The notes beneath the pieces were generated by a model, which was given only the letters and a program-made list of their open reading frames with translations, searched no databases and was not told where the DNA came from. Made by a program: the position numbers and the translations under genes. From Candidatus Sigynarchaeum calidifontis (GTDB taxonomy: Archaea > Asgardarchaeota > Lokiarchaeia > Sigyniarchaeales > Sigyniarchaeaceae), in the NCBI GenBank assembly GCA_030587475.2, contig JAUQYZ020000234.1, positions 1 to 21,239 of the forward strand: a stretch of DNA of 21,239 nucleotides, in the 5' to 3' direction. Every line of letters starts with the position of its first letter. The first letter of the stretch is position 1. This document shows, piece after piece, positions 5,601-13,760 of the stretch.

Positions 5601-5730
5601 GAGTCACTAGGAGTCACTTTTTCAACATAGTAGTATCATTTAATTGTCTTGAAAATAGCATATAATGCCTTGATACGGCCTAAAAAATCTACTAGTCACG
5701 CTTATTTGGGATCAATCACGGGTCAGTCAC
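5601..5730 (+). promoter_or_regulatory. Promoter region of the MIPS operon with repeated (A)GTCAC-like motifs
   Basis: GAGTCACT at 5601 and 5611, TAGTCAC at 5693, CAATCAC at 5713 and CAGTCAC at 5724. A BRE/TATA-like GAAAATAGCATATAAT lies at 5651-5666. Confidence 0.45.
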
Positions 5731-6930
5731 ATGGGAAAGACGGCATCCGATGCGGAGGTCATCGCCTACCTCGACTCGCACACGTACAAGGAAACCATGG
5801 ACCATTTTAATATAAGCCGCATGACCATTGCCCGCATAAAAAAACGTAACATTTCTCAACGGAAAAGTGATTACATGCCAGAAAAGATCCAGCTCGCGAT
5901 CGTGGGACTTGGAAATGCCGCTTCTGCATTAATCCAGGGCATCGACTACTACAAGACCACGAGGAAACCAACGGGGTTGCTTCGCCCTACGCTAGCCGGT
6001 TACCACATCTCCGACATTCAGGTCGTGGCAGCGTTCGACATCGCATCGAGCAAGGTCGGCAAGCCCGTGGGCAAAGCCATCAAGGAGAATGAACTCGCAG
6101 TGGTCGTGGAACCATCTGCTGATTTCGATATACCTGTACTGATGGGAAATCCCCTCGATGGATACATCGAGGAGACAAAAGACATCATCAAGCCGGCAAA
6201 CATCGCGCCGGTCGACGTAGCCAAGGCATTGAAGGATAGCAACGCCGAGATCGTGCTTTGCTTGCTGCCTTCTGGTGCTGACGAAGCAGTAAAGTACTAT
6301 GCAGAGCAATCACTCAAGGCGGGATGCGCTTTCATCAACGCAACGCCGACGAGCATCGCCACCGACAAAGGATTTGCAAAACGGTATCAAGATGCAGGAT
6401 TACCGCTCATCGGCGATGATCTCCAAGATCAATTCGGTGCGACCATCCTCCACAAGCTGATCTTGCAGCAAATGCTCGATCGCGGCGTCGACATCAAGGA
6501 AAGCTACGCACTCGACGTTGGCGGCGGTAGCGAGAGCTTGAACACGATCTTCCGCGCCCGGGACGTGAAGCGTGCCATCAAGAGCATGTCGGTCGCAGGA
6601 GCACTCAACATCGATGCCCCTATCGTCGCAGGAACCTCGGATTATGTCGAACATCTCGGCAACGGTAGGAACTCGATGCTCTGGATCGTTGGAAAAGGGT
6701 TTTTAGGCTCTGAAATCATCATGGACGTGAAAATACAGACAGAAGATGGGCCAAACGGCGGCTCTGTACTCGCGGACGTGATCCGTGCGACCAAGGTCGC
6801 GCTGAACCAGGGCGCGTGCGGGGCGCTTGACGAGATATCCGCGTACGGCTTCAAAAAACCCCCCAAGTCTGTCAAGAACCCGCAAGAGGCCTATAGAAAC
6901 CTGGCAAATTTCATCTTGGGGATCAAATGA
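5731..6930 (+). CDS. Divergent myo-inositol-phosphate synthase-like protein with an N-terminal helix-turn-helix domain
   Basis: Residues 1-48 are HTH-like (YKETMDHFNISRMTIARIKKR). The MIPS fold follows, with AIVGLGNAASALIQG, VAAFDI, FINATP, GDDLQDQFGAT, EDGPN and FKKPP. Confidence 0.88.
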   Translation: MGKTASDAEVIAYLDSHTYKETMDHFNISRMTIARIKKRNISQRKSDYMPEKIQLAIVGLGNAASALIQGIDYYKTTRKPTGLLRPTLAGYHISDIQVVAAFDIASSKVGKPVGKAIKENELAVVVEPSADFDIPVLMGNPLDGYIEETKDIIKPANIAPVDVAKALKDSNAEIVLCLLPSGADEAVKYYAEQSLKAGCAFINATPTSIATDKGFAKRYQDAGLPLIGDDLQDQFGATILHKLILQQMLDRGVDIKESYALDVGGGSESLNTIFRARDVKRAIKSMSVAGALNIDAPIVAGTSDYVEHLGNGRNSMLWIVGKGFLGSEIIMDVKIQTEDGPNGGSVLADVIRATKVALNQGACGALDEISAYGFKKPPKSVKNPQEAYRNLANFILGIK

Positions 6931-8165
6931 ACGGGGCGACAAGCATGGGAAAGAAGGCACAATCACCAGCAAAGGCACTTGACAAGATCGCCGAGCATTC
7001 CGAGGTGTCGCTCGGTGAATTGAAGGCGGTCGGGACCGAAACGGGAGAAAACAAGGAGATCCGCATCGCGATCGCGGGTCTCGGCAATTGCGCATCGGCG
7101 CTAGCCCAGGGGATCGAATACTACCGCAACATCAAGGAAGAGGACATGTACATCAACGGTCTCATGAACCCGAGCATCGGCGGGTACTTGCCAAAGCACA
7201 TGAAGATCGTCGCCGCGTTCGAGGTGAACGCGCTCAAGATCGGCAAGGACGTCGCTGAGGCCATTTATTGCGACCCCATCACGACCCCGCACTTCGTCGC
7301 ACCCGAGAAATACCCGAAAACAGGTACGATCGTCCAAGCGGGCCCCGTCCTTGACGGCGTCGCGCCGCACATGCGCGAGCGCTTCCATGTCTACGAGGAC
7401 GTTGATTCCAAGATCAAGCCGTGCGACGTCGTGAAAGTGCTCAAGGATGCCAGGGCCGAGATCCTGATCAATTACTGCCCCGTGGGATCTTTCAAGGCTT
7501 CGCGGTTTTACGCCCAGGCAGCACTCGACGCGGGTTGTGGATTCATCAACTGCATCCCCGAGTTCATCGTGAGCGAGCAAGTGCCCGGCGACAAGGACTG
7601 GGTGGCCGAGTTCAAGGCACGAGGCCTGCCATGCGCGGGGGACGATATAAAATCACAAGTCGGTGCTACGATCATGCACCGGATGCTCGCCAAGTTGTTT
7701 CTCGACCGTGGCGTTATCGTCAAGGACACGTACCAGCTCAACATCGGCGGGGACACCGATTTCGAGAACATGAAGATGGAGAGCCGCCTCGTGACGAAAC
7801 GGAAGTCGAAAACCGCGGCGGTGACGAGCGTGCTCCCTTACGAGACCAAGTGCCGCATCGGGCCCTCCGACTTCGTGCCGTTCTTGCTGGGCAAGAAAAT
7901 CTGTTACATCCGCATGAACGGCATAACCTTTGGCGGGGTGCCGCTTGAGGTCGACGTGAAGATGCGCGTGGAGGACGCGCCGAATTCAGCAGGGGTCGTG
8001 TTTGACATCATCCGCGTCATGAAGCTGGCTCTCAACCGGAAGATATCCGGCCGTTTGGACTCGATCTCGTCATTTTCTTTCAAGCATCCTCCAATCCAAC
8101 CGCCATCGGACGTGATCGCGAAACAGTGGGTCGCAGAGTTCATCGAGGGGAAGCGGGAGAGATAG
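6927..8165 (+). CDS. ino1: Inositol-3-phosphate synthase (MIPS), canonical prokaryotic type
   Basis: AIAGLGNCASALAQG, GDDIKSQVGAT, YQLNIGGDTDF, TKRKSKT, IGPSDFVP, EDAPNSAG and FKHPP. ATGA overlap with the upstream stop; an alternative start is ATG 6945. Confidence 0.95.
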   Translation: MNGATSMGKKAQSPAKALDKIAEHSEVSLGELKAVGTETGENKEIRIAIAGLGNCASALAQGIEYYRNIKEEDMYINGLMNPSIGGYLPKHMKIVAAFEVNALKIGKDVAEAIYCDPITTPHFVAPEKYPKTGTIVQAGPVLDGVAPHMRERFHVYEDVDSKIKPCDVVKVLKDARAEILINYCPVGSFKASRFYAQAALDAGCGFINCIPEFIVSEQVPGDKDWVAEFKARGLPCAGDDIKSQVGATIMHRMLAKLFLDRGVIVKDTYQLNIGGDTDFENMKMESRLVTKRKSKTAAVTSVLPYETKCRIGPSDFVPFLLGKKICYIRMNGITFGGVPLEVDVKMRVEDAPNSAGVVFDIIRVMKLALNRKISGRLDSISSFSFKHPPIQPPSDVIAKQWVAEFIEGKRER

Positions 8166-8219: not shown

Positions 8220-8969
8220 ATGACCAAGAAAACCATCATCGCCATCGGCGGTGGATCGTTGCGCCGCCGCGAGACCGAACAGATTGACAGACATATCATC
8301 AACATGACAGGCTCCAGGAACCCGCGCGCGCTTTACATCCCGACTGCCTCTCTCGACAACGCTGTTTATGTTACATTTTTCGAAAAGGTCTACGGCGAGA
8401 ACGGGTGCAAGGTCGATGTTCTCTTGCTTTTCAAGGAGCGTTATTCCCCCGCGCAGATCGAGGAAAAGATCATGTCGAGCGACCTGGTATACATCGGGGG
8501 CGGAAACACGCTGTTTCTCTATAACATGTTACGGTTCTACAAGGCTGACGAAGTGCTGAAGCGCGCGTGGGAAGGGGGCACGGTAATGTCGGGCCTATCG
8601 GCCGGGTGCATCATCTGGCACGAGCACGGGCTCACGGACTCCATCCACAAGAAGCTCGTCGACATGGGAGGCCTGGCTTGGCTACCGAGGTTCGTCACCC
8701 CGCATTATTTGCGCGAGCCCAAGCGAAGAGCAATCTTTCAGGAGATTATCGCTGCTCGGGGTTATGAAGGCCTCGCGATCGACGACAACTGCGCGGTCGT
8801 CTACGAGGGATCGTCTATCAAGGACGTCATCTCGCTCGGGGAAGGTTATGGCGCGAGAATTATGCGGGTAGAAAAGGGAGAAATTACGGCGATCGATCTC
8901 GATAAGACACTGTTAGAGCACCGGGTCGAGCCGCTGCGTATGCGCCTCAAGCAAAAAATAGCCCGTTAA
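8220..8969 (+). CDS. pepE: Peptidase E (S51 family, class I glutamine amidotransferase-like)
   Basis: IIAIGGG, YIPTAS, YIGGGNT, GLSAG (nucleophile Ser), PHY (His) and AIDD. Confidence 0.9.
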   Translation: MTKKTIIAIGGGSLRRRETEQIDRHIINMTGSRNPRALYIPTASLDNAVYVTFFEKVYGENGCKVDVLLLFKERYSPAQIEEKIMSSDLVYIGGGNTLFLYNMLRFYKADEVLKRAWEGGTVMSGLSAGCIIWHEHGLTDSIHKKLVDMGGLAWLPRFVTPHYLREPKRRAIFQEIIAARGYEGLAIDDNCAVVYEGSSIKDVISLGEGYGARIMRVEKGEITAIDLDKTLLEHRVEPLRMRLKQKIAR

Positions 8970-12859: not shown

Positions 12860-12944
12860 TGGATCGCCGTTAGAATGTTGCTCCCGTGGTTTAAAAAAGG
12901 ATATATACTGCTTCAAACGAGGGATGAGCATTCGGGTGAATCAA
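12860..12944. promoter_or_regulatory. Compact divergent promoter between the PfkB kinase and the SDR
   Basis: AT-rich core GGTTTAAAAAAGGATATATAC at about 12888-12908 gives TATA-like boxes on both strands. GGTGA at 12935-12939 precedes TTG 12945. Confidence 0.45.
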
Positions 12945-13760
12945 TTGACAAGAATCCAATTCGCATTAATAACGGGCGGGAGTTCAGGCTTAGGAAAGGC
13001 CCTCGCGATATCGCTCGCGCGCGGCGGCTCGTCGGTCGTTATCGTGGCGAGGAACGAAGCGCGTTTAACCGAAGCCAAGGCGGCAATCGAGGCCGCAAAG
13101 GCGGGAAATGGATTCGTTAAAACCGTGCAAGCCGACGTGACTGACGAGAAACAGGTTAGGAACACGTTCGACAAACTGGTGCAGCACGAGGGGGTGCCGA
13201 CCCACCTTATTAACTGTGCCGGTGCGGCAAATCCAGGGTATGTACAAGACTTTTCTCTTGCAGATTTCGAGGCAGCCATGCGGCTCGACTATTTCGGGAC
13301 GGTCATCCCCACGATCACGATGCTCCCCCATTTTCTCTCCCGCGGTTCCGGGCACGTGATCAACGTGTCGTCGGCGGGCGGTTTCGTTGGTCTCATCGGT
13401 TATGCGACGTACTGTCCCGCGAAATTCGCCGTCATGGGATTCTCGGAGGTTTTGCGGCACGAGTTGAAGCCGAAAGGCATCAAGGTGAGCGTTGTTTGCC
13501 CGCCCGATATGGACACGCCCGGCCTTGCCACCGAGAACAAGACCAAGCCCGAGGAATGCAAGATCATCTCGCAGCGCGGGAAGCTGGTCAAGCCGGAAGA
13601 TGTTGCCAAGGCCGTCATCGACGGTGTCAAGAAGGGCAAGTACTATATCCTGCCGGGCGAGTCGAACTACATCTTCAACATGAAGCGGTTGTTTCCCAGC
13701 CTCGTGTTCAGCATTATGGATGGCGACTTGCAGAAAGCGTTGAAGAAGCTTGGAAAGTGA
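12924..13760 (+). CDS. Short-chain dehydrogenase/reductase, 3-ketodihydrosphingosine reductase (KDSR/Tsc10)-like subgroup
   Basis: ITGGSSGLG, ARN (NADP-type), INCAG, NVSS, YCPAK (YxxxK) and PPDMDTPGLATENKTKPEECKIIS. The start is ATG 12924, GTG 12936 or TTG 12945 (the last has a GGTGA SD); it is not 12624. Confidence 0.88.
   Translation: MSIRVNQLTRIQFALITGGSSGLGKALAISLARGGSSVVIVARNEARLTEAKAAIEAAKAGNGFVKTVQADVTDEKQVRNTFDKLVQHEGVPTHLINCAGAANPGYVQDFSLADFEAAMRLDYFGTVIPTITMLPHFLSRGSGHVINVSSAGGFVGLIGYATYCPAKFAVMGFSEVLRHELKPKGIKVSVVCPPDMDTPGLATENKTKPEECKIISQRGKLVKPEDVAKAVIDGVKKGKYYILPGESNYIFNMKRLFPSLVFSIMDGDLQKALKKLGK

Follow-up and report, generated by a model that had tools for sequence, protein, structure and literature searches.

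A paralog of MIPS encoded in a lokiarchaeial genome, here called MIPS-B, carries an N-terminal HTH domain, and the upstream regions of such HTH-fused genes share a candidate operator that comes and goes with that domain. The altered pocket of MIPS-B appears from alignments to belong to an older paralog that is spread across the Asgard archaea and mostly lacks the HTH. The reading we favour, at slightly better than even probability, is that MIPS-B is a partner subunit of its canonical neighbour MIPS-A that gained an autorepressor module.

The window analysed here is a complete contig (C35) of 21,239 bases from a genome of 4.99 Mb, and its homologues bear the lineage label Lokiarchaeia/Promethearchaeota. 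Both MIPS homologues of the genome (P0001, MIPS-B, and P0002, MIPS-A) lie inside the window, where their ORFs overlap via an ATGA; pairwise alignment revealed them to be 36% identical over 366 aa. The locus has the following features:

5602–5618, + strand: operator-like pair of AGTCACT heptamers, at 5602 and 5612 (–129 and –119 from the ATG)
5694–5700, + strand: operator-like AGTCACG at –37, in the BRE position, directly 5′ of the TATA-like box
5702–5707, + strand: TATA-like TTATTT, –29 to –24 (sequence)
5725–5731, + strand: heptamer AGTCACA over the start codon and the presumed transcription start
5731–6930, + strand: MIPS-B (P0001), ORF of 399 aa with a three-helix HTH, a linker and a full MIPS fold
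5749–5847, + strand: tri-helical HTH, residues 7–39, recognition helix SRMTIARIKKR (Pfam, conservation, AlphaFold, structural matches)
5851–5883, + strand: flexible, variable linker, residues 41–51, with Met49 (ATG at 5875) as a possible, non-conserved internal start (alignment, AlphaFold)
5884–6930, + strand: MIPS-B domain, residues 52–399, NAD-binding motifs intact (sequence, structure, alignment)
6424–6429, 6514, 6532 and 6667, + strand: altered MIPS-B residues Q232/D233, D262, E268 and R313, respectively
Same ORF, + strand: kept MIPS-B residues D230, K280, K284, D339 and K375
6927–8165, + strand: MIPS-A (P0002), canonical Asgard-type MIPS with the full set of textbook active-site residues (ORF, domain search, alignment)

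In MIPS-A itself, the Rossmann strand is preceded by about 40 additional residues (6927–7052), in which an HTH search yielded no match, and the MIPS-A proteins of family f2 have N-terminal extensions of similar length. A peptidase S51 (dipeptidase E-like) gene lies 54 bp 3′ of MIPS-A on the same strand (8220–8969, +) and was no recurring neighbour among relatives. Elsewhere in the window, a short-chain reductase (12924–13760, +), for which the 3-ketodihydrosphingosine reductase TSC10 (8JAT, E 4.3e-26) is the top single-domain match in the PDB, carries a PPDMDTPG...ENKTKP motif typical of KDSR, and is possibly a sphingolipid-pathway relative in a Lokiarchaeon. A 155-aa coiled-coil-like ORF with a repeated KQFATKDD unit (854–1321, –) had no Pfam or NCBIfam match.

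The initial annotation of this DNA had proposed a three-helix HTH extension in frame with a full MIPS fold, and domain searches, structure prediction and homologues all bore this out. Residues 10–40 matched Pfam HTH_28 (E 2.3e-5; 24.8 bits, narrowly missing the cut-off of 25) and HTH_23. AlphaFold modelling of the N-terminus, the check suggested in that annotation, returned three confident helices (residues 7–14, 19–26 and 30–39; block pLDDT 87–91) followed by a disordered linker (44–49), and the domain was also modelled alone. The top structural matches of the isolated domain were all HTH proteins, including Tn3 resolvase (Z 6.7, rmsd 2.8, 44 aligned residues) and SigA region 4, LsrR and SorC (Z 5.3–5.6), these Z values being modest because the domain spans only 45 residues. 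Moreover, 63 of the 120 top homologues, from Lokiarchaeia, share this HTH, and its recognition helix hardly varies among them. Conservation reaches 0.82 over residues 7–40 and 0.92 in helix 3, the highest of any segment, against 0.72 in the Rossmann part, and the helix 3 codons of the window's genome and a same-genus relative differ by 6 synonymous and 0 non-synonymous changes. By sequence and by model, the extension is thus an HTH DNA-binding domain, a three-helix bundle with a conserved recognition helix.

Since only 28 of the 63 HTH-fused homologues have a Met at position 49, the extension is not a start-calling artefact; homologues consistently starting at this Met were not found, and Met49 was ruled out as the true start because most fused homologues lack it. 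Conversely, mis-called starts as the origin of the HTH-less homologues were ruled out at the loci checked (a subset of the database proteins), where no HTH was present upstream. The same HTH type, with transposase-type Pfam matches, also occurs on many unrelated proteins and in tandem arrays. Among these are fusions to Roadblock/LC7-like domains in Lokiarchaeia (L050:2556–3143, –; L051:3041–3616, +; P0130, P0136 and P0144), PF03259 being matched by 9 of 81 HTH matches, and these HTH-Roadblock fusions are possibly an undescribed regulator family.

The remainder of MIPS-B is a member of the MIPS superfamily, with a PF01658 match of 52.9 bits (cut-off 27) and with 1GR0 found both by sequence (E 2.3e-62) and by a Foldseek comparison of the model (E 2.4e-35, TM by target 0.89); a shape search of the Atlas led to a generic MIPS cluster and nothing else. 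Alignments recovered every motif change that had been listed relative to the neighbouring copy (GDDLQDQ, ALDVGGGSES, NGRNS and DGPNGGS), together with the retained KxxxK, ED Asp and FK Lys and the intact NAD-binding motifs. Relative to A. fulgidus MIPS, the catalytic Lys triad and Asp pair of a canonical enzyme are in place (D225, K274, K278, D332 and K367, corresponding to D230, K280, K284, D339 and K375), whereas three other residues are replaced (N255D, D261E and K306R in A. fulgidus numbering; D262, E268 and R313 in MIPS-B) and the phosphate-loop motif GDDxKS has become GDDLQD (Q232–D233). The three lysines kept in MIPS-B are those credited with isomerisation in MIPS (PMC11348189), and MIPS-B therefore need not be inactive.

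This pattern extends well beyond the window. D230, K280, K284, D339 and K375 are invariant in 62–63 of 63 B loci, and E268 and R313 occur in all 63 across the phylum, in both cases down to 39% identity (the B loci were sorted by the D262 motif, which makes a count of D262 circular and leaves E268 and R313 as independent markers). Canonical MIPS has N, D and K at the altered positions in 46/46 Asgard and 74/74 non-Asgard sequences. The B genes form one tree branch separate from the canonical ones, with low support for its exact base, and the NCBI lineage labels of some HTH-less homologues are doubtful (e.g. 'Hodarchaeota' for L031). The pocket changes are invariant in HTH-fused and HTH-less close homologues alike. 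As judged from these alignments, the altered pocket marks an older pan-Asgard paralog that is mostly HTH-less; the pocket is therefore old, under selection and not dependent on the HTH. In addition, a third variant of MIPS (GxGDVA, LDWGG, NQKEA, DGNNSAG) was observed at L023–L030, L049 and L207:5967–7067.

MIPS-B genes travel with the MIPS-A clade. Of 76 loci, 25 have B and A side by side, with either gene first and in many cases with an overlap (short flanks may lead to an undercount). In family f2, B usually lies far from A. In family f4, an A-type MIPS was found in 13/13 genomes with B, and B in 13/14 genomes with A, with 88 genomes having neither; 22 of these 88 carry a canonical-type MIPS outside the A clade, and none of the 22 has B. 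Shared descent and operon co-transfer raise these counts, and much of the co-occurrence could reflect such transfer. An A-type MIPS also stands alone in some other Asgard families (a single match in genomes that are 93–98% complete), and A therefore does not always need B.

A predicted A–B dimer scored 0.79 (best control 0.00), passing a mark that 58 of 80 solved complexes and 2 of 110 mismatched pairs also attain, and its runs agreed on at least 97% of contacts with a partner pLDDT of at least 87. The predicted contact is strand-to-strand, at B residues 322–338. Because this pass could be explained by memory of solved MIPS homo-oligomers, it shows only that the interface is compatible. The earlier suggestion of a regulatory subunit acting with the downstream MIPS is thus plausible from adjacency, from the f4 co-occurrence and from the predicted dimer as a compatible interface, and we regard a physical A–B complex as slightly more likely than not.

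Gene neighbourhoods of B did not contain a single conserved downstream pathway gene, and included nucleotidyltransferases, glycosyltransferases, UbiA and polyprenyl synthase. At L031, L206 and L211 the B–A pair is located among a nucleotidyltransferase (PF12804), a PF04464 glycerophosphotransferase and GT4 glycosyltransferases, a gene content that suggests CDP-inositol use in a surface polymer. At L207, two ITPK1-like (PF05770) genes (14–910 and 7085–8008) flank three MIPS paralogs, an MFS transporter and an SDR. A search for ITPK1 in the window's genome gave no match, and its control was likewise without a match anywhere.

The main rival to the partner-subunit reading takes MIPS-B for a distinct enzyme whose substrate or product differs (a different hexose phosphate or cyclitol, or NAD-dependent epimerisation of the MIPS-A product), in which case the HTH would make it a bifunctional enzyme-autorepressor like BirA, NadR or PutA. 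The invariance of the catalytic residues, including the isomerisation lysines, fits such an enzyme, as do the fixed, mostly conservative pocket changes (D to E, K to R), which do not look like decay. Ari2 offers a precedent, as it is homologous to MIPS, has GDDL and acts on a different substrate (PMC9092360), and the third variant, which has the same Asn-to-Asp change, is the sole MIPS homologue found in many near-complete f4 genomes. The nucleotidyltransferase, glycosyltransferase, UbiA and polyprenyl synthase neighbours point in the same direction, but none of them is conserved beside B as a pathway gene. Moreover, K306 and N255 are important in A. fulgidus mutagenesis according to a passage of PMC5614600 that cites Neelon 2005, and Ari2 retains both, while B tracks the A-type clade specifically and not any canonical MIPS. 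We therefore consider a distinct enzyme possible but rather unlikely.

The upstream regions of HTH-fused genes share a heptamer, (A/G)GT(A/C)AC(A/T), which most often forms a direct repeat with a 19-bp period and is sometimes inverted or otherwise spaced. At least two heptamers were present within 150 bp upstream of 18/18 HTH-fused genes, as opposed to 0/52 HTH-less paralogs and 0/55 Asgard and 0/69 non-Asgard canonical MIPS genes, the chance of such an occurrence in shuffled sequences being 0.002–0.017 per locus. A later set (2/2 HTH-fused and 0/7 HTH-less, one a duplicate) brought the counts to 20/20 HTH-fused genes and 0/58 HTH-less paralogs, beside 0/124 canonical MIPS genes. Seven of the 20 HTH-fused loci were held out, having been fetched after the motif was defined, and the matches listed in the related-locus search of genome contigs, mostly canonical MIPS, served as a control set. 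Three single-contig genomes (4.3–6.0 Mb) each have a single occurrence of the 19-bp repeat, situated 5′ of MIPS-B; one of these genomes encodes the N-terminus of the protein that bears the name of Ca. Lokiarchaeum ossiferum. Half-sites are rare genome-wide (0.3 per kb), which rules out the heptamer as a general promoter element.

The operator sites are located just 5′ of, or flanking, the TATA-like box, and in the window also over the start codon; most HTH-fused loci have a site at –37 to –43, and relatives have similar AT-rich boxes 3′ of the last heptamer. The position of the TATA-like box in the window suggests a leaderless MIPS-B transcript. In the same-genus locus L002, the heptamers at 5602 and 5612 have unchanged positions within otherwise divergent intergenic DNA, and the site at 5694, which has one mismatch to the heptamer in the window, is perfect. 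A sigma-70 promoter scan is uninformative for an archaeon. In family f2 (L005, L007–L012), a conserved divergent gene for a Lys/Ser/Thr-rich protein of 260–340 aa without a Pfam match lies upstream, and may share its operator with MIPS-B.

On the gene tree, the distribution of the HTH calls for four changes, interpreted here as a single gain and three losses; monophyly of the HTH-bearing genes is rejected (p-AU 0.0002). The motif is absent after every HTH loss, and some HTH-less genes still start with a remnant of the linker. Contrasts between motif and HTH all agree, but with two on well-supported branches and four on all branches they are too few for a formal test. Because motif and HTH appear and disappear together, MIPS-B probably controls its own gene, and the DNA-binding, autoregulatory role first proposed for it gains support. 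By comparison across loci, a conserved site thus stands at the gene's own promoter, and the heptamer repeats are a probable autoregulatory operator. Given this pattern in the sequences, the MIPS-B HTH very likely binds the heptamer. Repression is the likely outcome, and activation from the BRE-adjacent site may be an alternative.

The initial annotation had gone further and suggested a one-component regulator that would use a remodelled MIPS pocket as its sensor. On this reading, MIPS-B would be a dedicated, catalytically dead transcription factor for inositol synthesis, with NAD(H), G6P or inositol phosphate as its ligand. An HTH joined to an enzyme fold does recall ROK or SorC/LsrR, with SorC and LsrR among the structural matches of the HTH, and the candidate operator lies 5′ of the B–A operon in the window and in L208–L212. 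However, the remodelled pocket predates the HTH; since the same substitutions occur in a mostly HTH-less paralog and are kept after HTH loss, the pocket did not evolve for transcriptional sensing, and this part of the proposal is not supported. The unlinked MIPS-A genes of family f2 have no motif upstream, and B therefore does not control A transcription there. Moreover, a search for a wider regulon yielded variable-spacing heptamer pairs elsewhere in ten genomes at or below the level of the reversed-pattern control. Such a dead sensor is accordingly unlikely. A last reading makes the HTH a mobile-element passenger and assigns the heptamers to a different factor or the core promoter. The promiscuous, transposase-like group of the HTH, present on many unrelated proteins (Roadblock-domain proteins included), and its approximately three losses might hint at this, but we deem it highly improbable, because helix 3 is conserved above the enzyme core and free of non-synonymous changes in the same-genus pair, and because the rare motif vanishes with the HTH.

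In the favoured partner-subunit reading, MIPS-B would be an old Asgard MIPS paralog that cooperates with MIPS-A. The two would most likely assemble into a mixed oligomer with MIPS-B as the second type of subunit, which would bind NAD and a sugar- or inositol-phosphate-like ligand and tune output. A mobile, flexibly tethered tri-helical HTH would have been added to MIPS-B in one Lokiarchaeia clade. MIPS forms tetramers (PMC11348189), and a mixed oligomer would present several HTHs to the repeated heptamers around its own promoter; the variable spacing and orientation of the heptamers fits tethered HTHs on an oligomer. MIPS-B would then most likely repress its own gene, and the B–A operon where the genes are linked, the signal being either a pocket ligand or surplus B relative to A. 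Family f2 has A unlinked and without a site, so that only B (and perhaps the divergent neighbour) would be controlled there, which fits subunit balancing. Ligand control of MIPS-B has about an even chance. The fullest version, in which Asgard archaea have a heteromeric MIPS of catalytic and regulatory paralogs and the lokiarchaeial regulatory subunit is a ligand-gated transcription factor coupling flux or subunit balance to repression, is more tentative, and we hold it to be conceivable rather than probable.

Among known systems, M. tuberculosis Ino1 (1GR0; EC 5.5.1.4) shares with MIPS-B the fold, the NAD-binding motifs, the equivalents of D230 and D339, KxxxK and K375. MIPS-B differs from enzymes of this type by its N-terminal HTH, the fixed N255D, D261E and K306R changes and the changed phosphate loop, N, D and K being kept by 74/74 non-Asgard MIPS. 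BirA, NadR and PutA are bifunctional enzyme-repressors in which a DNA-binding domain is fused to a biosynthetic enzyme fold. MIPS-B resembles them in this architecture and in its predicted own-operon control, but is a non-canonical paralog beside a canonical copy, known from sequence, and its HTH is of a transposase-like tri-helical type that was repeatedly lost. ROK proteins (NagC, Mlc), SorC/DeoR/LsrR and Rex are enzyme-derived regulators that likewise combine an HTH with an enzyme-like ligand pocket. Their sensor domain is mainly regulator-only, whereas the MIPS-B pocket predates the HTH and is widespread in its absence; an altered pocket specific to the DNA-binding form was not found, as HTH-less relatives across the Asgard archaea have the same one. 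The five-membered-cyclitol-phosphate synthase Ari2 (PDB 6K96) is also a MIPS homologue with GDDL, and its substrate has changed to F6P (PMC9092360), but it keeps the Asn, Asp and Lys altered in MIPS-B, has no HTH and serves secondary metabolism. Arabidopsis MIPS1, an active enzyme, stimulates its own expression via ATXR5/6 chromatin marks (PMC3597657). Like MIPS-B, as predicted, it is a MIPS protein acting at its own promoter, but without a fused HTH, making this a convergent idea rather than a shared mechanism.

A literature search, with most subscription papers outside its coverage, found no description of an Asgard MIPS paralog or an HTH-MIPS fusion. What is new, as far as sequence comparison carries it, is the pan-Asgard altered paralog as host of the HTH and an operator that tracks the HTH. 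MIPS-B and its named 7-bp site thereby form a concrete candidate regulator-operator pair from Asgard archaea, and an HTH-fused form is present in the cultured Ca. Lokiarchaeum ossiferum (P0044). At the same time, a second, mis-annotated MIPS clade is exposed across the phylum. Lokiarchaea are close relatives of the ancestor of eukaryotes. MIPS is the first enzyme of inositol synthesis, and inositol-3-phosphate feeds the archaeal inositol lipids. Because inositol-3-phosphate, besides feeding lipids, serves ITPK1, control of its supply bears on the origin of inositol signalling: it is an ITPK1 substrate, and ITPK1 is common to Asgard archaea and eukaryotes (PMC7695695). The MIPS family is known for homotetramers, and a heteromeric or a redirected member would, if true, be new to it.
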